From the NCBI RefSeq assembly GCF_006345805.1, contig NC_043000.1, positions 65,038,001 through 65,102,000 of the forward strand: a DNA stretch of 64,000 nucleotides. Direction: 5' to 3'. The stretch is from Octopus sinensis. Its lineage: Eukaryota. Position numbers and translations under genes: made by a program. Positions 1,319 to 60,407 of the stretch are shown piece by piece. Each line of letters starts with the position of its first letter. Within the stretch, counting starts at the first letter, position 1. Below the pieces are notes generated by a model. The model had not been told where the DNA came from and made no database searches. It saw only the letters and a program-made list of their open reading frames with translations.

Positions 1319-1931
1319 TATAACGAACCTAGTGTGAGTATATCTTCTCTTGTACTTTCGGGGTACAAGAAAGCAATCACTAGCCGTTGCTTTAATAATC
1401 CAGAATTCTACCAGTCAGAAACAACAAGACGCAGACGTAAATAATATATATACTACTTTATTCTCTAATGTGGTAACAGTAACAATAAGTGGTTATCTGA
1501 TGTCCTTGGTTCTGGGCGCGCAAGGCTGAAAGTTAATCGATTGTAATATTTACAATGTTCAGCCGCTAAAAACAGAACGGGTTAAAGATGGCGGCGAACA
1601 ATGGAGACGATGTTGGTCTGCAACAATTTGGTTAAAGGCCTTTTGGTAAGGTGCTGCTAGAATCAAGTCCAGACGGAGAGAAAATATTTCGTGACCGTCG
1701 CCTTCAGTCGCTGCTGTCTCAAGTCCCCGCTGACTGCTGCTAGTGGTCAAACGTTCTACGACCCCCTTGCCTTGGCTAACTACCACGTAGGCAAAAGGGT
1801 CGTGCTTCCGGTGGTTCGCGCATGCGCGAGAGGGCCCTTCCTTTCTGTGCCTTGGTGAAGGCACCAACACTCGCACGCGCGAAATAGAAAATGGACGGTG
1901 CGCGCGCGCGCACCGTTATAGGATCACTACA
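1319..1931 (-). repeat. 3' LTR
   Basis: Copy of 3477-4092; adjacent to the PPT. Confidence 0.9.
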
Positions 1932-3454
1932 AGGCTCCCCTCCAGTGCGTACGCACGAAGGAAACTTATTGTAGTGACTGCAAAACTCAAGGTGGATACC
2001 AGATAATCAAATAGCACACAATATAATAAAATGGCAAAATTTATAACATACACAAGAAATTTACTAAAGGAAAAAGAGAAAAAATACTCAATGAGCAAAA
2101 ATCAAGAGTGCATGCATGAAAGTGTATACGTCACAAAGTATAAACCCTTCCGCTGAAAGGAGCGGAGGGAAAGCAAAACTCACAGTCAATGAACCTAGGC
2201 GAAATTAAAATCCAACTTCTCTAAAGGTGGTTGATCTTGCAAAATAACAGTTAAATCAATTGCTGCAGGAGAGGAAATGGAATTGACAGAAGCTCGCTAG
2301 TAACACAAAAGGCAAAAGTGCAAACATGCTGGTGTGATGCGCGACACAGATAATTTTCTGTTAATTACGTGACCAACAGTGGTCTAACAGGGAAAAATAA
2401 TTACGCCTAAACATGGCGCAGCGCATGTGAACATCCGACTTCTATGAGTCGGGAAAAGAATTAAGCTAACGCAAACGTGTTGCAAAAAACAAGGCAATAC
2501 ACGTGCGAAGCAAAAGGCGCATGAAATGCAATAGTGCTTGCCAGACCGAAAAACAGCAATGAATATGCCAGTGGTTGAGCGATTATATGCCTCGTTCGTA
2601 CAGGAACAAAGGTATGGCATGCTGGCGCGTTATAATGGACAAACAACCCTCTCTATGTATACGTGACCCCTAGGGTCTATAGAAATGAGGGGTGTCCACA
2701 AAAGGCAAATTTAGCATGGAAAAAAAAACAAGCGAGAAAAGCATGTGTGACGTATGTATGTGAGAGATAGCATTTATGTGTGTGTACGTGTGTGCGACAG
2801 AAATACATACAAGGTGAATGCGAGCAAAAATAAATACAGCGCATAGAAAAAATGTCTCTCGGGGCTATTCCAGACAAGAGTTAATTTACCAGTCTGTAAT
2901 AGCCTGATGCACAATAGCAGTTCGTTCTGTAACAGAATGTTGAAATCACAAATGCAGATGCCGGTTGAACACAATGTGTAGCGGTTGTAGCTTCGATGCT
3001 GTGACATGTTAAATCGTTACAGAAGAATCTCGCAGATAGACGGTGCTGTTAATCCTTGGTGTGCATATGCACATACAGCGTGCACGCTAAAGTTCCGCGA
3101 GTTGCTATGTACATCTTGTGGAGGTCGACGGTGTTGAAAGGCGACGGTGGTGGTGGAAGGCGACTGTAGTGGACTTGAGACAACATCGTTCTTAGTGATG
3201 ATGGCGACGAAGATAACGACGACGTGAAGTAGAAAGACGACGATGGCGATGACGAAGGTGGAGAAAAGGCATCGAATATATGATGGCGTCCGTCATCATG
3301 GCTGTAGAATAAGAAAGAGGCTCCTTCTACAACTGTTTGTAGTGGCCGGAAACAAATCGTCGAAAGATGATGACTGCGTAGAGTTAAATCGTGTTCCGAC
3401 TTCGCAGAAAAACTGGATTTCTTTGTTGTTAAGTGATCTCCGGTTTTAGACTAG

Positions 3455-3475
3455 AATCACGTCGGGGGTCCACCA
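3455..3475 (-). promoter_or_regulatory. Primer-binding site, tRNA-Trp
   Basis: Plus-strand aatcacgtcgggggtccacca vs the tRNA-Trp 3' end AATCACGTCGGGGTCACCA (two extra bases); 1 nt from the LTR edge. Confidence 0.85.
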
Positions 3476-3476
3476 G

Positions 3477-4092
3477 TGTAACGACCTTAGTGTTGTGTGA
3501 ATATAATTCTCTTGTACTTTCGGGGTACAAGAGGCAATCACTAGCCGTTGCTTTAATAATCCAGAATTCTACCAGTCAGAAACAACAAGACGCAGACGTA
3601 AATAATATATATACTACTTTATTCTCTAATGTGGTAACAGTAACAATAAGTGGTTATCTGATGTCCTTGGTTCTGGGCGCGCAAGGCTGAAAGTTAATCG
3701 ATTGTAATATTTACAATGTTCAGCCGCTAAAAACAGAACGGGTTAAAGATGGCGGCGAACAATGGAGACGATGTTGGTCTGCAACAATTTGGTTAAAGGC
3801 CTTTTGGTAAGGTGCTGCTAGAATCAAGTCCAGACGGAGGGAAAATATTTCGTGACCGTCGCCTTCAGTCGCTGCTGTCTCAAGTCCCCGCTGACTGCTG
3901 CTAGTGGTCAAACGTTCTACGACCCCCTTGCCTTGGCTAACTACCACGTAGGCAAAAGGGTCGTGCTTCCAGTGGTTCGCGCATGCGCGAGAGGGCCCTT
4001 CCTTTCTGTGCCTTGGTGAAGGCACCAACACTCGCACGCGCGAAATAGAAAATGGACGGTGCGCGCGCGCGCACCGTTATAGGATCACTACA
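3477..4092 (-). repeat. 5' LTR
   Basis: Copy of 1319-1931; adjacent to the PBS. Confidence 0.9.
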
Positions 4093-4868
4093 ATATAAAG
4101 GGCTTGTTGCTTGTGCTTTCGAAGTACCGCTCTCTGATTTGTTTACGCCGGTTGTGCTTATATAACCACAAAAGCGCGGCTTCTACTTGTACAAAATAAA
4201 CCAAGCTTTAATATGGGGTGATATTTGAGGTTAATGAGCAGGACATATTTCGAGTTGATAAGCAGGACATATCGCCAGTCTGGTTTGGGTCTAGTTACTG
4301 AAGCTGTAAATTTTCAATTCTAGGACTTGCTACAGCACATTAGCTAAAAAGCTTTATCTATTTTAATCAAGTTTTGTACATCAGAATTTGAAGATTCTTT
4401 ACCACCCAGTAACATTAAATACAAGCGAAAATGAATGAGAGACATCTTGGCATTGAAAACAGATGTTTATCTCAAATACGTCCAAGCAGAAATGTCACTA
4501 CCAAATATGACGTTAATATTTCCTATCGATAACCTTTATTTAATACATATCTTTTAACTTTATTTGCAAAGTTCGGGAAAATATTTTTGTTTGCTTTAAA
4601 ATGTGCTGCGAGTAAAATATACTTTGGCAAAAAGTGATAAAGCTTTCTTATTAGTTCAATGCAGACCGAGCAACCGCGCAGAAAATCCTTCGTAGAGTCG
4701 TCCTTAAATTGTCTTATAACGAAGCCAATACACAGGGTTATCAACTTAGCTCATTTCTAGAAATAACTAACAGGAAAATAGTCACCTAGCGAATAAATAT
4801 AAATCCAGATAATTTTCAAAATAATGTAGTGAATTCTATCAAGTTTTTCAAATTAGTATTTTTATATA

Positions 4869-10169: not shown

Positions 10170-10700
10170 TCAGACAGCATTTTTCAACACATCTGGTGCT
10201 TTAGCGCAATCTTCAGGCTGTGTCCACAAAGTATAACAAGCTGAAAACAAGACGACAATATGAGAATAAAAACACAAAAGGCGAGAAGGAAGTAGATGTA
10301 AAAGGTGTAAGGTTGAAAAACCGAAAAACAAAAAAGCAAATAGAAAAAACAAAAGGTGGTGGTGGTGAGGGAGAATTAGAGTTATGACTCCTTCGACCGT
10401 GAAGCCATAAGGCTGAAAAGATGGTAGCCTAGAGTTTGTGGTACAGCTGCTCAATCCAGAGAGAAAGGTACTTTCCAATTTCGCTAACAGGAACATATTC
10501 AGATCTGAAATCCAGCGGTGCGGTACAGCTCTTAGATCTGAAAAAGATCTGTGTTCTTTCAGCTCTGCATAGCTTAAATATTTTGACCCGTTGACATATA
10601 GTGTGGACTTTTCAACTGTTTTCCACTTTATTGTATGTGTTGTGGCGTTAGACTTCAAACCCCACACGCAGCCAGCCAACTCAGTGGTTTTACTTTTGTT
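10170..10700 (-). pseudogene. Penelope-like element 3' remnant: GIY-YIG endonuclease C-terminus plus decayed hammerhead
   Basis: ORF segment KTTELAGCVWGLKSNATTHTIKWKTVEKSTLYVNGSK resembles the PLE endonuclease tail (TELSxYxWxLK...IKWKIxxxxxxY); downstream on minus, cacagc-CTGAAGA...GAAA-aat-gctgt at 10174-10221 with stem III lost. Confidence 0.7.
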
Positions 10701-10994
10701 CTGCCGAGATCGACATCGCCTTTCGTGTTCGATAGAATAATTATCAGTCAAGTACTGGGGTTGATTGAATTGACATTAAAAAATGCCGACATTGTGCCAA
10801 GATTTGAAATCATTATTAACAGAGGCATATATTAATTATGTATAATTTTTATCACCTATACTGATCGATGCGGATAGTGTAATTTAATGAAGATGCTCAC
10901 TTTGCAACCCATATAGTTCTGAGTTCGATTCCAGTGCGTGACATCATAAGCAAGTGTTTATTGTAGCCTGGAACTGACAAATGATTTGTTAGAC

Positions 10995-12900
<1,906 letters not shown>

Positions 12901-20846: not shown

Positions 20847-21060
20847 TAACATAAGGGACTAAAGCCATCTGAATATGGCTAGGGACAGGCAGGGTGGTGG
20901 GGGGTTACTGTTGCATTTAGCCCCAGGCGAACATCAACGTCGCCAGGCAACAGTAACCCCCCCACCACCCTGCCCTGTCCCTAGCCATATTCAGATGGCT
21001 TTAGTCCCTTATGTTATGGAGCAGTTACTGTCTATATCTCATTTAGAGAATTATTATTGC
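20847..21060 (+). mobile_element. Hairpin pLTR-like element, family P1 (short)
   Basis: Arms 20847-20914 and 20947-21017 are reverse complements; unpaired tail ggagcagttactg...ttattgc; (TA)n on both sides. Confidence 0.75.
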
Positions 21061-22537: not shown

Positions 22538-22542
<5 letters not shown>

Positions 22543-22816
22543 AGGGGCATCAGCCATCTGAATGTGGCTAGGACAGGGCAGGGTGGTGGGGAGTGTTACT
22601 GATGCATTTAGCCCCAGGCGATCATCGACGTCACCAGGAGGGCTGACACCACCGAGATGGTGTCAGCCCTCCTGGTGACGTCGATGATCGCCTGGGGCTA
22701 AATGCATCGTAACACCCCCCACACCCTGCCCTGTCCCTAGCCACATTCAGATGGCTGATGCCCCTTATGTTATAGAGCAGTTACTGTTTATATCTCGTTT
22801 AGAGATTTATTATTGC

Positions 22817-22874: not shown

Positions 22875-22887
22875 ATATTATTTATAT

Positions 22888-23730
22888 TATATTGAGGGTA
22901 CTACTATTCGTAGATACCATCACGCTAAGAGGGACCAATGCGGTCAAAACTACTAAAAATAAACAAAATTTTACCGAATGCAAAACTTCAAAACACATCA
23001 TTTTAAAAAAGAATTCAGTTACATATCACATGTGATTTCGCATTTAATGCAGAATATGCATTTCATGTTCATCAGTGCAACAAACTCAAGAAATATAAGA
23101 GAAAAACATAACATTAGAAGCTCGATAGCCAACCGTAGAATTCGTCGTATTTACGGATTTTTTCTCTTACGAGGTTTTTCACGCTGACTACTGATAATTT
23201 CTTTTAAAGATTTTATCCTCAATTGTTAATTTATATTTTTCACCGGAATAGTTCAATACTGAATTTTTATTCCGACTAGACAATTTGTTACCGAAATGCA
23301 TTGCGAATAAGCCCGCCATTTTCATAGATATGTAAAGATAAACATTCGTACATGCTACGACGAATTCTACGGTTGGCTATCGAGCTTGTAATGTTATGCT
23401 TTTCTCTTATATTTCTTGAGTTTGTTGCACTGATGAACATGAAATGCATATTCTGCATTAAATGCGAAATTACATGTGATATGTAACTGAATTCTTTTTT
23501 AAAATGATGTTTTTTGAAGTTTTGCATTCGGTAAAATTTTGTTTATTTTTAGTAGTTTTGACCGCATTGGTCCCTCTTAGCGTGATGGTATCTACGAATA
23601 GTAGTACCCTCAAATATATAATAATGAATATTTTCAAAGAGGAAGAATTTACGAATTTTTTCTCTTACGAGGTTTTTCACGCTGACTACTGATAATTCTT
23701 TTAAAGATTTTATCCTCAATTGTTAATGTG
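22888..23730 (+). mobile_element. Retrozyme/Penelope-like element, family P2 (inverted arm plus >1 monomer of ~500 bp)
   Basis: 22890-23145 is the reverse complement of 23357-23614; 23149-23228 repeats directly at 23648-23726; hammerhead in both arms; (TA)n flanks. Confidence 0.8.
23424..23487 (+). ncRNA. Type-I hammerhead ribozyme, AUA triplet (mirror copy 23018-23081 minus)
   Basis: gttgca-CTGATGA-acat...atgc-GAAAT-tacatgtg-ATA-tgtaac; 6-bp stem I; stem III is the palindrome ATCACATGTGAT in the mirror copy. Confidence 0.8.
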
Positions 23731-23788
<58 letters not shown>

Positions 23789-23963: not shown

Positions 23964-25588
23964 TCAAAATGAAAACATGATGCCAAGGATTCAGCGGTAC
24001 AGTGTTTCGGGCCTTTATTAGACGGTTTTATAACAATGCATAATGTGTGTCTATGGCCTTCTTCAGCCGCGTACAATTACCACCTCAAGGACATGTATTA
24101 CATTATAAGTTTTACGTTGGGGAATCAAATCCTCATAGTCGCGTACGACAGAGTGGGGCACCAACACAAAAACTCCCCATGTGTGTGAGTGTGGGCGTGA
24201 GTGTAGGTGTATGCATATCTTTGTCCATAAGCATAGGGATTTACTTTCTCATGTGTGTGAGTGTGTCTGTATGTGCGCAGGTACGTGTATGTGTATACGT
24301 ACGTATGCGCGTCAGTTCTTGTACCCAACTACATGCACCTTTTTCCGTATGTATGTGTATATTGAGATATTTATGTATGTGCACATATACGTATATAAGT
24401 GGGTAGACGGGCGGGCTTTACATATGTATGCGTGAGTATGTATTTGTGTGTATACGAGTGCGTATGCAGAGGCAGGTTATTGTATTTGCTTTTATGTATT
24501 TAGCTGGTGCAAGCTTAGGTATCCGTACGTAGCGGGACGTATGTATATGCGTACCCCTGTCGGTATTTTTACACGAGAGTACGTATGTATATATACGTGT
24601 GGATGTGTATACGTGGGTATGTGTATGTGTATATGTGTATATGTATGCATGCGTGTACGTATGTACATGTTGACCACTAGTAACAAAGACAATTTACGAG
24701 GAAGTAGATAAACTGTTTAGCCACAAACCAGAAAACCAGACAACCGAAATTGACCATATACTTGATCTCCAGACTTTCTAGTTGATTTATGACACCCGCC
24801 ATTACGCTCGTAGGCTTCAACAACCGGAATATGTCATCTTTCTGACCACCATGTTAGTTCTTAACCCCTTTATATCCCTTATCCTTATTATTTTTTTTCT
24901 TTCGTCCTCAGTTCTCGCTTTATCTTTATCCCTATTTATTTATATTACCATGTTTTTTTTCACGTCTGTGTGTATTTAAATATTTATATATTTATATATT
25001 GATTTATATATTTATATACTTAGATACTTTTTTTTATATTCTTATATATTTCTTTGTATTCTTATAACTTTTTTTATATTCTTATATATTTTTAATATTC
25101 TTATATCTTTTTTATATATTTTTAAAATTTTTACTCTTTTGTAATTTTTTACGCTTTTACTACCATTTGCACCCACCACCCTCCCTCTTTGTGATCCCTA
25201 ACTCACTAAAGATTCAACCCTCCCCAACCCCTTCCCTCTCTATCTCAACATCCAAACTTCCTCATACTACATCGAGTGAAAGACGGGATGGACGCTTCGT
25301 TTTTGTGTTGGTGCCCCACTCTGTCGTACGCGATATGAAGATTTGCATCCCCAACGTAAAACTTATAATGTAATACATGTCCTTGAAGTAGTAATTGTAC
25401 GCGGCTGAAGAAGGCCATAGACACACATTATGCATTGTTATAAAACCGTCTAATAAAGGCCCGAAACACATGTACCGCTGAATCCTTGGCATCATGTTTT
25501 CATTTTGATTAATATACTCTATCACCTACACCACTAAATGGTATATACAGGTGCTTACAATTATCAAGTATTCACCCTGAATTTTTGT
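23964..25588 (+). mobile_element. Penelope-like element, family P3, with inverted pLTRs
   Basis: 23964-24172 is the reverse complement of 25299-25508; ~80-nt unpaired 3' tail; (TA)n flanks; hammerheads in both arms. Confidence 0.8.
25401..25478 (+). ncRNA. Type-I hammerhead ribozyme, GUA triplet (mirror copy 23994-24070 minus)
   Basis: gcgg-CTGAAGA-aggcc...ggccc-GAAAC-acat-GTA-ccgc; palindrome ACATGT. Confidence 0.8.
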
Positions 25589-25606
25589 ATATATATATAT
25601 ATATAT

Positions 25607-26483
25607 AAAATTAAATTTAGGTAAAAATTGATATTTATCCATTAGAACCAGTGGTCTAGCATATTAAAAGAAAGAATCCGAAGATTAAAATATTTATATG
25701 TACCAATTAAGGACTGAACACGAAAAGTGGACAGTCAACATGCTAGATATAGACGTCAAATCGCCAATCTCCACAAAAAGTCTATGTTCTCAGATCAAAC
25801 TCAACACAAAACCAAAGCAATAAACAAGTGAAAAATATACGAAATAAATATTTACCCATGTACTAAATTTAGTTTCGGCTGTTATTTTCCGCAAGGAAAA
25901 GTGCAGCCATCATCAGCATGGTCCCATATAAAATGAAATTTGCTGTACTAAATGCCAACACGATACCGAAATATCGCGTGCATGGAGTACGGATTCGTTC
26001 TTTTAATATGCTAGACCACTGGTTCTAATTGATAAATATCAATTTTTACCCTAAATTTAATTTTATATAAATATTTGTTCTCTAACCGATAAATTAACTG
26101 CTGCTAACTATTAGCTGCAGGCTAGTTTTCTCGGGTCTCATCGCGCCAAAATAAAGACATTTGAAATATATATTTCAAATGTAATAGGCCGTACTCCATG
26201 CACGCGATATTTCGGTATCGTGTTGGCATTTAGTACAGCAAATTACATTTTATATGGGACCATGCTGATGATGGCTGCACTTTTCCTTGCGGAAAATAAC
26301 AGCCGAAACTAAATTTAGTACATGGGTAAATATTTATTTCGTATATTTTTCACTTGTTTATTGCTTTGGTTTTGTGTTGAGTTTGATCTGAGAACATAGA
26401 CTTTTTGTGGAGAATGGCGATTTGACGTCTATATCTAGCATGTTGACTGTCCACTTTTCGTGTTCAGTCCTTAATTGGTACAT
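25607..26483 (+). mobile_element. Retrozyme-like element, family P4 (circularly permuted ~510-nt unit plus inverted arm)
   Basis: 25607-25990 is antisense to 25991-26483, but reads across the end-to-start junction of the sense unit; same family at 38929-40540. Confidence 0.8.
26260..26325 (+). ncRNA. Type-I hammerhead ribozyme, GUA triplet (mirror copy 25856-25921 minus)
   Basis: ccatg-CTGATGA-t-ggctg...cagcc-GAAAC-taaattta-GTA-catgg; palindromic ACTAAATTTAGT; all core bases present. Confidence 0.88.
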
Positions 26484-26488
26484 ATATA

Positions 26489-26534
<46 letters not shown>

Positions 26535-26553
26535 ATATATATATATATATATA

Positions 26554-26605
<52 letters not shown>

Positions 26606-26621
26606 GTGTATATATATATAT

Positions 26622-27531
<910 letters not shown>

Positions 27532-29788: not shown

Positions 29789-30600
29789 CTAGTAGCACCC
29801 ATGTAAATTCCACGGTCAACACACTTGAAAACATTACGTAACGTCTTTCAAAACGTTCTTTTGATATCTTGCCATCTAATGAAAACTGCTTTTAAACATA
29901 ACTGAAATGAATACGTATGACAAATATGATGTACTTTATAGTTTAAGGAAATAAAAGATGAATTAGATAAAACTTATTCATATATATTTAGTAAATGTTT
30001 ATTATTTACGGTCTTTATTACATAGTTATAAAGTAAATGAATAAATACAAACGATAGTTTATATGATTATTATATGTATATAAAAAGAACAGGCACTTAC
30101 TGAATAAGATACAAACAATCTACATTACAAACAGGCCTGTACGAAGTCTATGTGACATACATACAAAAACAAAAATACAAAACCAATTTAAATGTGTCTG
30201 AAATAGGCATTGTATGTGATCATAGAAAATACTTAACAAACTGTATGAACTGAATGTAATACGAATGACATACATATACATGAGATAAATAAAATACTAG
30301 ATTTACTCTCTCAGCATTTAAAAAATTTTTATTTAGAAAGTTTTTAAGAATTTTACCTTCTTGTTTGTCTTGTCCGTTGGTCTCAACTACTCTTACAACC
30401 ACATCAGATAATTTTCTGGCCCTAGAAAATGCCACATATAATTGCTTATGGCTGAACACAGGAGGTGGTAAACATATTCCAATTTTGTTAAATGTTTGTT
30501 CTTGTGCCTTATTTACTGTCATAGAGTAAGGCAGCCTTACAGTTCTGAAATTAAAGGAAAACTGGAAACATTTGGAGTCAGTTTGATGTGAGGTTATTAG
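29789..30600 (-). pseudogene. Helitron 3' remnant with a PIF1-type helicase fragment
   Basis: [16 protein letters not shown]...[15 protein letters not shown] matches the PIF1/Helitron motifs TINKAQGQT and VFSHGQLYVAxSR; minus-strand hairpin plus CTAG|T at 29789-29818. Confidence 0.85.
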
Positions 30601-31135
30601 GAAGCGTATTTCTTCTTGTTACGTGTTATTGAAGTGGATCCAATGCAATTATTGTAGAGGCAGACACATCTTACATATAGTACATGCTTGCTTCTAATTA
30701 TTTCTTTTTCTGAAAAATAACCGCTTTCATTTATTCTCCTTTAAGCTCATGTCGTCTATCGTTGCCCATATTTTACAAAGAAATGTTTCGATTGAGCATC
30801 AGAGAATTAATTGCACCAAAGCGCATGTGTTAAGTGAAGGAACTTTAAAAACTAAAAATATATAAACAAACTACACCTTCGCTGTCCAACCACCACCAAG
30901 GCCCAATAAAAGTTATTTACCAATTGAGATTATTTTCATTTCTTTTCATTTCACTTTATGTCAGCAACATATCTATTTGTATATCAATTAATATATCTTT
31001 CTATTTGCATGACTTGATATATCGGTAGACTCATCTACCTACCTACCTACCTACTTACCTACCTACCTACCTACCTACCTACCTGCCTACCTGCCTGCCT
31101 GCCTGCTTGTCTGCCAGTCTGTCTGCCTGTCTGCC

Positions 31136-38836: not shown

Positions 38837-38928
38837 TATATATACATACATACATACATTACATACATTTAACATACATACATACTACATACACATAATA
38901 TACATTATATTATATATATATTATATAT

Positions 38929-40535
38929 ATACCAATTAAGGACTGAACACGAAAAGTGGACAGTCAACATGCTAGATATAGACGTCAAATCGCCATTCAC
39001 CACGAAGATTCTGTTCTCAGATCAAACTCAGCACCAAAACCATAGCAATAAATCAAGTGAAAAATATACGAAATTAAAAAATTACCCTGTATAATTAGTT
39101 ATCGGATGTTATTTTCGCAAGGAAAACTGCAGCCATCACAGCTGGTCCGTTAAATGCAATTTGCTGGACTAGATGCAAACACGATACGAAATATCGCGTG
39201 CATGGAGTTCAGCCTATTAATTTGAATATATCTTTCAAATGCCTTTACACGCGTTGAGACCCGAGAAACTAGCCTGCAGCTAATAATTAGCAGCGTCAAT
39301 TTATCGGTTAGGAACATATTTATATAAAATTAATTAAGGGTAGAAATTGATATTTATCAATTAAGACCAGTGGTCTAGCATATTAAAAAAGAATCCGAAG
39401 ATTAAAATATTTATATATACCAATTAAGGACTGAACACGAAAAGTGGACAGTCAACATGGCTAGATATAGACGTCAAATCGCCATTCACCACAAAAGATT
39501 ATGTTCTCAGATCAACTCAGCACAAAAAACATAGCAATAAACAAGTGAAAAATATACGAAATAAAATATTACCCATGTACTAATTAGTTTCGCTGTTATT
39601 TTCCGCAAGGACAAAAACCTGCAGCCATCATCAGCATGGTCACGCGCGCCAAAGTAAAGGCATTTGAAAGATATATTCAAATGTAATAGGCTGAATCCAG
39701 CACGCGATATTTCGGTATCGTGTTTGCATCTTAGTCCAGCAAATTGCATTTCTAACGGACCATGCTGATGATGAAACTAATTAGACATGGGTAATATTTT
39801 ATTTCGTAATTTTTCACTTGTTTATGCTATGGTTGTGCTGATTTGATCTGAGAACATAATCTTTGGGTTTGACATGGCGATTTGACCGTCTATATCTAGC
39901 ATGTTGATGTCCATTTTCGTGTTCACTTAATTGGTATATATAAATATTTTAATATTCGGATTCTTTTAATATGCTAGACCACATGGTCTTAATTGATAAA
40001 TATCAATTTCTAACCTTAATTAATTTTATATAAATAAATATGTCTCTAACCGATAAATTGACTGCTGCTAATTATTGCTGCAGGCTAGTTTTCTCGGGTC
40101 TCAACGCGCCAAGTAACGGCATTTGAAAGATATATCAAATGTAATAGGCTGAACTCCATGCACGCGATATTTCGGTATCGTGTTTGGCATCTAGTCCAGC
40201 AAATTGCATTTATAACGGACCATGCTGATGATGGCTGCAGTTTTCCTTGCGGAAAATAACAGCGAAACTAATTCGTACATGGGTAATATTTTATTTCGTA
40301 TATTTTTCACTTGTTTATTGCTATGGTTTGTGCTTGCTGAGTTTGATTGAGAACATAATCTTTTTGTGAAGTGTGGCGATGATTCCATACGTCTATATCT
40401 AGAGCATGTTGAGTGTCCACTTTTGTGTGTCAGTCCTTAATTGGTATATATAAATATTTAATCTTCGGATTCTTTTTTAATATGCTAGACCACTGGTCTT
40501 AATTGATAAATATCAATTTCTACCTTAATTAATTT

Positions 40536-40540
<5 letters not shown>
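38929..40540. mobile_element. Family P4 array: ~1.5 antisense and ~1.8 sense head-to-tail units, four hammerhead positions
   Basis: accaattaaggactgaacac at 38931 and 39420; ttggtatatataaatat at 39931 and 40441 (510-bp period); inversion near 39642; motifs at 39573-39639 (-), 40220-40282 (+), stem-II-deleted 39760-39790 (+), degenerate ~39085-39146 (-). Confidence 0.8.
40220..40282 (+). ncRNA. Type-I hammerhead ribozyme (family P4)
   Basis: ccatg-CTGATGA-tggctg...cagc-GAAAC-taattc-GTA-catgg. Confidence 0.75.
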
Positions 40541-40609
<69 letters not shown>

Positions 40610-43314: not shown

Positions 43315-44035
43315 GAAGGAGGATAAAAGGAAGTACAGCATAACTTGGTCCATAATAAGGCAGACGAAACCATACAATATAATTTCCAGGAGATGCTGTC
43401 TCTGCTCCGAGGAATCCCTGTCTATTCCGTGGACTAATCAGAAGATCAATTAAAGAATTTCTGAAAGACTCTCGAGATGCCTACACGCATATAAATGTAC
43501 ATTCGTACAATGCAGTGGGAATGAATTTTGAGTAACCGTTGACATAATTTACTTTAACGTATGGATGACTTAAGTTTACTGTTAACCCCCCCCCCCATTC
43601 TTACAAACACCAAGTTGATAGTTAACTCGCTTTGTGATCATGAATGCACCAAACTTCCACGTCTGCGTATACTCGCAGTTTCGCGGATGCTTGTATGAGC
43701 GAGTGTACTCGCATCATGCAGCTTGCGCTTGGGCGTTTATACATCTCTGTTTGTTAACGGTTATTTTAAATGATTTTCTCGCAGTATTGCGTGAACGTTT
43801 CTCTTTTCTCCATCTGTGATTTTATTTTTGGTCTTCTATGTAAATGAAAATATTTCCTCCGTTTCGCTGCTTTTCTTTCTACAAAACGAGAGGTTACATC
43901 TGCACCGCCGGATGCTCCTGAACCTGTTGTTGAGTGTCTTACCCGTGAGGGATCGAGACTAGATGTGCCGAAACAATTGTCGTGATTAATAATAAATTCT
44001 CGTATATTCCATCTTCCGTCTTTCATTTACCATAT
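43315..44035 (+). pseudogene. Penelope-like element 3' end: GIY-YIG tail, UTR and decayed hammerhead
   Basis: YSITWSIIRQTKPYNIISRRCCLCSEESLSI...SE..SRCLH resembles PLE WSI...PY...RCxLCxxEK..I...SE...CxH; stem II ggttacatct/agatgtgcc then GAAAC-aatt-GTC at 43892-43981 with CUGANGA eroded. Confidence 0.8.
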
Positions 44036-51099: not shown

Positions 51100-51505
51100 C
51101 AATAATAATTCTCTAAATGAGATATAGACAGTAACTGCTCCATAACATAAGGGACTAAAGCCATCTGAATATGGCTAGGGACAGGGCAGGGTGGTGGGGT
51201 GTTATTGTTGCATTTAGCCCCGGCGAACATCAACGTCGCCAGATAGGCTTGACACCATCACGGCGTCCTTTATCCTGCAAAGGAGATAATTCCCCGATGA
51301 AGCGGAAACACACACGGACCTAGTTTTCAAGGTATTGCCTATCATCAACGTGTGGTAGGCCCCCGCTTCCTTGCAGGATAAAGGACGCCGTGATGGTGTC
51401 AACCTATCTGCGACGTTGATGTTCGCCTGGGGCTAAATGCAACAGTAACACCCCCACCACCCTGCCCTGTCCATAGCCATATTCAGATGGCTTTAGTCCC
51501 TTATG

Positions 51506-51508
<3 letters not shown>
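51098..51508 (-). mobile_element. Hairpin pLTR-like element, family P1 (long), hammerhead in the loop
   Basis: Arms ~51143-51283 / 51369-51508; tail 51098-51142; same family as 20847 and 22538. Confidence 0.8.
51311..51354 (-). ncRNA. Minimal hammerhead motif (two substitutions)
   Basis: Minus: cacacg-TTGATGA-t-agg-caata-cct-t-GAAAA-ctag-GTC-cgtgtg; perfect 6-bp stem I; CTAG palindrome loop. Confidence 0.7.
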
Positions 51509-56609: not shown

Positions 56610-56954
56610 TGTGACAATTAGTTGGTTGTCATAATAAAATTCAGAGTTTCGGATGCCGGGGCTGAAGTCTGCTTCGGCATCTCATCAGTTATTAAGACAA
56701 ACCAATGGTCCAATAGTATAGAAGTCGTTGACTGGTTTAAAGCCATTAGGAAAAAAAGAAAGCGAGATTTATCACAATTTGAGGTTTATCTTAATAACTG
56801 ATGAGATGCCGGAGCAGACTTCAGCACCGGCATCCGCAACTCTGAGTGTTATATTGACAACCAACTAACTGTCACATATATTTATAGATAAATTCCTCTA
56901 TTTGTATAATATCGAGGTCTCATTCATTGTTTTGTTGTCATATTGTTATTATTA

Positions 56955-59589: not shown

Positions 59590-59686
59590 ATATATATATA
59601 CATATAAATTATATATTTTTATGTACATACATATATAAGGAATACTAGGAACTCTACAACAGTCACTCACACACACACACACACAC

Positions 59687-59721
<35 letters not shown>

Positions 59722-60004
59722 TATAAATTAGGGTATCTACGAGATACCACCATGCTGAAAATAGCAGCCATGAACCGACTCTAAAACCACCTTAAGTTTT
59801 CATATAGCAACATGGAGAAAAGACAGAGAGACAAGATGAAACTAGTAAAAAATTACTGGAGAATTCTAGATCCCGGATTTCTGACTTTGCGTTTAGAAAT
59901 GCTTTGCCTTGTCAGTAGATATATATATATATATATACATATAAATTATATATTTTTATGTACATACATATATAAGGAATACTAGGAACTCTACAACAGT
60001 CACT

Positions 60005-60045
<41 letters not shown>

Positions 60046-60241
60046 TATAAATTAGGGTATCTACGAGATACCACCATGCTGAAAATAGCAGCCATGAACC
60101 GACTCTAAAACCACCTTAAGTTTTCATATAGCAACATGGAGAAAAGACAGAGAGACAAGATGAAACTAGTAAAAAATTACTGGAGAATTCTAGATCCCGG
60201 ATTTCTGACTTTGCGTTTAGAAATGCTTTGCCTTGTCAGTA

Positions 60242-60243
<2 letters not shown>
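59590..60243 (+). repeat. Tandem duplication, ~325-340-bp unit bounded by (TA)n
   Basis: catataaattata...gccttgtcagtag at 59601-59918 and 59938-60242; differs only in microsatellite lengths. Confidence 0.9.
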
Positions 60244-60285
<42 letters not shown>

Positions 60286-60407
60286 TATATATATACATAA
60301 ATAAAGTGCAGACATGACTATGTGACCCACTTCGCAGGAGAAATATCTCCTACGATAACCCGGACCGACCGATATCTTGTTAGTGAATTTGCAATATATA
60401 TATATAT

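Follow-up and report, generated by a model that had tools for sequence, protein, structure and literature searches.

The inverted pair of repeat arms at positions 25607-26483 of the window (the whole 64-kb stretch of DNA that was analysed) is built from a 511-nt unit that very probably represents a non-autonomous derivative of Penelope-like elements (PLEs), that is, an animal non-LTR retrozyme, and whose copies were probably placed in TA microsatellites by a PLE enzyme working in trans. The unit is a new family within the already known class of animal non-LTR retrozymes. Its insertions carry the mechanical marks of PLE integration, namely an inverted partner, a one-sided tail and a TA target, and two likely reverse transcription (RT) start sites on the unit are marked by fixed 3' ends. 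An earlier note on this DNA had set a retrozyme against a PLE. The retrozyme-type, non-coding unit was recovered, but the opposition dissolved, as PLE insertion marks and a PLE hammerhead architecture are present in the same unit. The gain lies in supporting evidence on retrozyme mobilisation and in a new family, not in a new kind of element. A search of the literature on octopus hammerhead ribozymes, Penelope and transposable elements, and circular RNA found no paper on the 511-nt family. PMC8557442, PMC4209133, PMC7229834 and the preprint 10.64898/2026.07.22.740005 are cited below from parts of their text.

Structure of the 511-nt unit

Locus 1 (25607-26483) consists of an inverted pair of non-coding repeat arms in permuted order, which align as two blocks with 300/303 and 81/85 identical positions. 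The sense arm (25991-26483, plus strand) comprises unit positions 1-493 and stops at the first fixed 3' end in a (TA)n tract. The inverted arm (25607-25992, minus strand) extends from unit position 199 through the unit junction to the second fixed 3' end, also in (TA)n, and overlaps the sense arm by 3 nt (25990-25992). The junction itself, leading from unit end to unit start, is 18 nt long (25680-25697, minus strand) and is also found in tandem at locus 2 and in the public run X2. Together, the 493 and 18 nt make up a unit of 511 nt with a GC content of 33%. The earlier note's account of a circularly permuted unit of about 510 nt, with a sense copy at 25991-26483 and an inverted arm that contains the end-to-start junction, is thereby confirmed. 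It had further described the unit as free of ORFs, and this holds when the unit is read round the junction, where the longest stop-to-stop frame spans 65 codons and the longest ATG-started frame 41. An autonomous PLE with an RT plus GIY-YIG ORF was ruled out, as the unit closes on itself without an ORF.

One arm only carries an extension of about 90 nt (25608-25697, minus strand), corresponding to a PLE-type 'tail'. The locus is bordered by (TA)n tracts on its left (25588-25607) and right (26484-26620) ends, the left tract being common to the 3' end of an adjoining hammerhead-bearing insertion. As each arm holds a single hammerhead, and a read-through transcript would form a 303-bp hairpin over it, locus 1 is an integration product that could not release a monomer. 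No tRNA was found within the 64-kb window.

Hammerhead motif and predicted fold

The sense arm contains a type I hammerhead at 26260-26325 (plus strand), with an identical copy in the inverted arm at 25856-25921 (minus strand). Its elements follow in the order stem I (5 bp), CUGAUGA, stem II (5 bp, with a further 6-bp helix), GAAA, palindrome and GUA; stem I is open, while stems II and III are closed. Helix III is a perfect 12-nt palindrome (26308-26319), and cleavage is predicted after GUA, between 26320 and 26321. A motif scan reproduced the core bases, the 5-bp stems I and II and the 12-nt palindromic stem III that had been noted earlier, and added an extra U between A9 and G10.1, which had been overlooked. 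PLE hammerheads are described as having one additional base between positions 9 and 10.1, combined with a short helix I and a helix III that is palindromic (parts of PMC4209133). With a strict pattern, three hammerheads were matched in the 64-kb window, compared to none in 30 dinucleotide shuffles. Rfam gave no match at gathering score within the window, and its eight matches at E up to 10 over 25500-26600 did not include a hammerhead. Identity with a plant LTR retrozyme was ruled out, as the hammerhead is of type I (stem I open) and not of type III within LTRs.

The unit as a whole is predicted to fold strongly, with z values of -5.0 as a circle and -5.2 as a linear molecule, and one of 14 other stretches of the window folded lower. 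A long imperfect hairpin (26172-26255, plus strand) lies directly upstream of the hammerhead and forms the tip of the predicted rod. When the whole unit is folded, its minimum-energy structure contains helices I-III, with pair probabilities of 0.5-0.6, 1.0 and 0.4, respectively. Among 18 family substitutions, five break a predicted pair, compared to an expectation of 52% (P 0.03, for variants that are not independent), and no compensatory base change was found among these 18 variants.

A second locus with tandem units

Another inverted pair of the 511-nt family, locus 2 (38918-40545), is situated 12 kb from locus 1. Its inverted arm (38918-39641, minus strand) contains 1.46 units head-to-tail without a tail, and its sense arm (39645-40545, plus strand) contains 1.87 units head-to-tail with an 86-nt tail. 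Each arm holds two hammerhead copies, of which one per arm (2/4 overall) passes a relaxed scan. One copy in the sense arm, at 39760-39790, lacks the whole of stem II (about 36 nt), which reflects either a genuine deletion or an error of sequencing. In the copy at 39634-39578 the helix III palindrome stays perfect at 10 nt, compared to 12 nt at locus 1. The locus 2 arms required 34 and 49 gap openings in alignment, compared to 0 and 1 at locus 1, and these indels may be sequencing errors. Two consecutive units with complete hammerheads, the mark of an active copy in the preprint 10.64898/2026.07.22.740005 (parts of its text), occur in no arm of either locus as assembled, locus 2 being indel-rich. 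Substitutions shared within locus 2 mostly coincide with variants in public contigs, and locus 1 is accordingly a minor variant of the family. Since two loci are readable whole, the counts of ends and tandems rest on four arms.

Could the 511-nt pieces derive from an autonomous PLE as its 5'-truncated ends (pLTRs)? PLEs most commonly leave remnants of this sort, namely ends that are inverted, truncated and equipped with a hammerhead (parts of PMC8557442 and PMC4209133), and the neighbouring insertions at 23965-25587 and 26620-27420 resemble them. Such an origin is nevertheless improbable, as both arms that exceed one unit loop back into the 511-nt unit after about 500 nt. Unit follows unit upstream in 2/2 arms that are long enough, and the 511-nt loci are therefore not truncated ends of a coding element. 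The continuation of genomic copies upstream into an RT-coding PLE, which the earlier note had named as evidence against its reading, was thus seen in neither long arm. The lack of any ORF above 65 codons and the presence of the junction in at least three of four aligned public runs also speak against pLTRs.

We further considered whether the loci could have arisen in place, as a satellite expanding by unequal crossover, or could be a fold-back artefact introduced during sequencing or assembly. The indel-rich state of locus 2 would be compatible with an artefact, and local amplification of a PLE end has been raised as a route (parts of 10.64898/2026.07.22.740005). Against both, the arms are permuted and not mirror images, the flanks of locus 1 and locus 2 are not mirrored, the same pair of 3' ends recurs at two loci separated by 12 kb, and the junction and ends are also found in independent runs under two organism labels. 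This explanation is therefore rated as very improbable.

Insertion anatomy

The four arms start at different unit positions (1, 199, 268 and 152), whereas their 3' ends fall at unit positions ~493-501 or 83-84 in 4/4 cases, with one of each per locus. These two fixed 3' ends lie about 90 nt apart, and (TA)n is found at all four arm ends. Both loci (2/2) possess an inverted, 5'-truncated partner copy and a one-sided extension, of 90 nt at one locus and 86 nt at the other. The extension results from the 3' ends of the two arms lying at two different unit positions, one per arm. An inverted 5'-truncated copy, a one-sided tail and a preference for (TA)n are characteristic of PLE insertions (parts of PMC8557442), in which the tail corresponds to the stretch between two RT start sites (PMC11167929). 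Work on a PLE protein in vitro showed cutting and extension of both strands, with starts at two internal sites of the RNA that delimit the tail (PMC11167929). The length of the tail, about 90 nt, exceeds the 30-40 bp described for PLEs and counts against the PLE reading.

An insertion with inverted arms at 23965-24167 and 25305-25587 adjoins locus 1 on its left. Its hammerhead lies at 25405-25474, and the arm at 25305-25587 has, as read from the flank, a tail of about 80 nt that is confined to this side and stops in the TA tract bordering the 511-nt unit. This insertion is probably a truncated PLE end. Directly to the right of locus 1, the element at 26620-27420 ends in (TA)n and contains a hammerhead (27133-27236) with a palindromic helix III and a long stem II.

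Template and proposed mechanism

All four arms read through the predicted cut site, at locus 2 twice each, and the template was consequently either a re-ligated circle or an uncut multimer. The end of a linear monomer released by the cut would lie 163 nt upstream of the first start site. The earlier note had argued for a template that is continuous round the unit, as a multimer or a circle, and the junction together with the tandem arrangement at locus 2 bears this out. The permutation is equally compatible with an uncut linear multimer and with a circle, so that it does not single out the circle by itself. The choice between a re-ligated circle and an uncut multimer is nearly balanced, and we place an RNA circle as template at slightly under an even chance.

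We postulate the following course of events. A tandem donor would be transcribed, and cleavage by the hammerhead after GUA (26320), perhaps in a dimer formed via the palindrome, would then free 511-nt monomers. By analogy with PMC7229834 (parts of its text), a host RtcB-type ligase would circularise these monomers. A PLE GIY-YIG/RT protein acting in trans would nick both (TA)n strands, reverse transcription would start at two internal RNA sites (twin priming), and the two cDNAs would join at their 5' ends, as the 3-nt overlap at locus 1 may reflect. Taken one step further, and more tentatively, the insertions may be fossils of rolling-circle reverse transcription, with two priming events by the PLE enzyme on a single 511-nt RNA circle, itself made by the hammerhead, and an inverted pair of copies longer than one unit as the outcome. 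If true, this rolling-circle reading would amount to direct proof, at the sequence level, of the life cycle proposed for retrozymes, with the RT start sites mapped on the circle, and, taken with the 498-nt neighbour described below, would imply that the genome hosts several abundant circular-RNA parasites of PLEs.

It is also quite conceivable, at somewhat less than an even chance, that the same non-autonomous PLE derivative has a weak or silent hammerhead and moves only as an uncut linear multimer, with no cellular circle. The crossing of the cut site by all four arms is consistent with this, as is the behaviour of an Anolis PLE, which needs no hammerhead cleavage in vitro and uses uncut RNA (PMC11167929). 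Eight of nine Xenopus retrozyme dimers did not cut (parts of 10.64898/2026.07.22.740005), and metazoan PLE hammerheads cut poorly in vitro (parts of PMC4209133), which counts against the circle. On the other hand, the core of the 511-nt hammerhead is intact, its helices I-III are present in the minimum-energy fold, and circles were found for the retrozymes of coral, mussel and axolotl (parts of PMC7229834). A possible sign of two donor units is that the first segment, present twice at locus 1, differs at 3/79 positions, compared to 2/295 in the other shared segment; in this comparison, from which terminal columns in the TA tract were dropped by hand, the difference is not significant (Fisher P 0.066). 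Moreover, the differences at locus 1 are not common to other copies.

The mover enzyme of animal retrozymes, and the circle as template, are stated as open in parts of 10.64898/2026.07.22.740005 and PMC7229834, where the prior evidence on the mover consists of co-occurrence and sequence kinship with pLTRs. The marks of PLE integration and the two likely RT start sites on the 511-nt unit bring the question of the mover within reach of the PLE assay already available in vitro.

The family in public contigs

Part of the unit is contained in 20 of the 24 public runs listed, under six organism labels. All 24 runs consist of contigs, and for none of them is RNA recorded as the source, although X1 and X2 are guessed to be RNA. 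Four runs were aligned, namely X1, X2, X15 (organism A) and X17 (organism D), yielding 89 (X1), 4 (X2), 1170 (X15) and 209 (X17) contigs that match the unit. Among the rows listed, the end-to-start junction was observed in one X2 contig with the letters of the window and in one X17 contig with a variant, and its letters also occur as loose ends in X1 (2 contigs) and X17; the junction is present in at least three of the four aligned runs. Likewise among the rows listed, 25 contigs of X15 enter TA repeats behind 26480, and contigs of X1 and X17 do so behind 26057 and 26074. The share of aligned material continuing into unlike sequence was 0 in X15, 0.02 in X1 and 0.03 in X17. In X2 it reached 0.42, a value from four contigs that counts against the reading as a PLE derivative. 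As judged from these alignments, the public contigs represent a diverse family in which the junction and the ends recur.

In X2 (four contigs, one study), one contig ends at 26316, 4 nt before the predicted cut, and 26331-26398 is uncovered. One contig has loose letters before 26400, which we take to be a cDNA template-switch adaptor. This pattern would fit a linear RNA extending from about 26391 round the junction to the cut, although contig ends need not be RNA ends and a single study is too little, so that no weight is given to it here. Two X1 contigs reach beyond the cut site, but by no more than 21 and 15 letters, which is too short to be taken as bridging. The four aligned runs list no pile of contig starts or ends, and contigs cannot show RNA ends. 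Further loose ends were seen in X17 (before 26404, 4 contigs) and in X2 (behind 26472); they point to related families that have the segment beside the first fixed 3' end in common, and may offer a lead to the autonomous partner.

Partner search and neighbouring elements

An autonomous partner with matching ends was not found within the 64-kb window, which counts against the reading as a PLE derivative. The fragments at 10581-10712 and 43337-43426 match short unannotated proteins and are presumably PLE GIY-YIG pieces. More generally, we assume short pieces in the window to be PLE endonuclease and RT fragments; Pfam gave no PLE-domain match for these candidate fragments. Four matches were obtained in a search of representative proteins. 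Three of them, P0002-P0004, are short unannotated pieces, and P0001 was rejected as the partner protein, being a chance match to a repeat protein. No longer protein relatives of a window fragment or of P0003 were found. A scan with a 22-nt pattern found no match in viral contigs and none in prokaryote genomes, and its three matches in metagenome contigs were dismissed as chance, as they are confined to the pattern and lie in DNA of 56-61% GC.

A further unit, laid out like the 511-nt unit, is located 2.3 kb away at 22875-23733, with a 276-nt inverted arm and a sense arm with a period of 498 nt. Its hammerheads (23430-23481, plus strand; 23075-23024, minus strand) have one additional base behind A9, and their helix III is a palindrome of 12 nt. 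The 498-nt unit has no real similarity to the 511-nt unit, its longest open frame spans 84 codons, and its fold z is -2.6 for an approximate unit. It is a candidate second retrozyme family. As a whole, four hammerhead families are found within 5 kb.

Other parts of the window hold additional repeats. At 56610-56876, a palindrome with a hammerhead-like fold in its arms encloses a short spacer, the translation of which, in our assumption, resembles a PLE RT motif. Another family is represented by three palindromes (20849-21014, 22539-22769 and 51145-51506) that lie in (TA)n, vary in their centres and bear a tail of 46-52 nt on one side; hammerhead scans of these three copies found none. Near-identical direct duplications at 59600-60304 (period 337), 1332-4093 (601 nt, 98.8%) and 11359-12738 (306 nt, 100%) are either recent duplications or assembly artefacts. 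The fragment at 30220-30618 (minus strand) resembles a helicase C-terminal region, with weak Pfam matches below the cut-off, and we take it to be probably a Helitron remnant.

Comparison with known systems

Animal non-LTR retrozymes, which have been proposed as non-autonomous PLE derivatives with family lengths of 51-972 bp (parts of 10.64898/2026.07.22.740005), resemble the 511-nt unit in their non-coding tandem organisation, one type I hammerhead per unit, a GC content below 50% and strong predicted self-pairing. The unit falls within this range of lengths. Judged by its DNA features it belongs to this class. At 511 nt, it is longer than the animal retrozyme circles reported in parts of PMC7229834 and 10.64898/2026.07.22.740005 (~170-400 nt). 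Its hammerhead is of the PLE type, in contrast to the canonical loop-loop type of animal retrozymes. Furthermore, it occurs in short inverted pairs with a tail in (TA)n, and the main texts of PMC7229834 and 10.64898/2026.07.22.740005, as far as cited here, describe no such insertions.

PLE insertions share with the 511-nt loci the inverted 5'-truncated partner, partial tandems, a one-sided tail between two start sites and (TA)n targets (parts of PMC8557442 and PMC11167929). PLE hammerheads likewise have the extra base after A9 and the palindromic helix III (parts of PMC4209133). The 511-nt unit differs from PLEs in lacking an ORF, in its length of 511 nt compared to about 3 kb, in a tail of about 90 nt instead of 30-40 bp, and in a helix III that exceeds the minimal form in length.

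Non-autonomous Chlamys PLEs, such as MRC1 of Chlamydomonas, are likewise non-coding, head-to-tail multicopy insertions moved by PLE proteins (parts of PMC8557442). Naiad and Chlamys elements are reported, in the same parts of PMC8557442, to be without canonical hammerheads, whereas the 511-nt unit has one and appears to reside in an animal host, whose microsatellite load is reminiscent of cephalopods. Plant LTR retrozymes, as far as described in the sources consulted in part, are hammerhead-bearing non-coding retroelements as well, but combine type III hammerheads with LTRs, PBS/PPT and 4-bp target duplications, whereas the 511-nt unit carries a type I hammerhead in a tandem arrangement.
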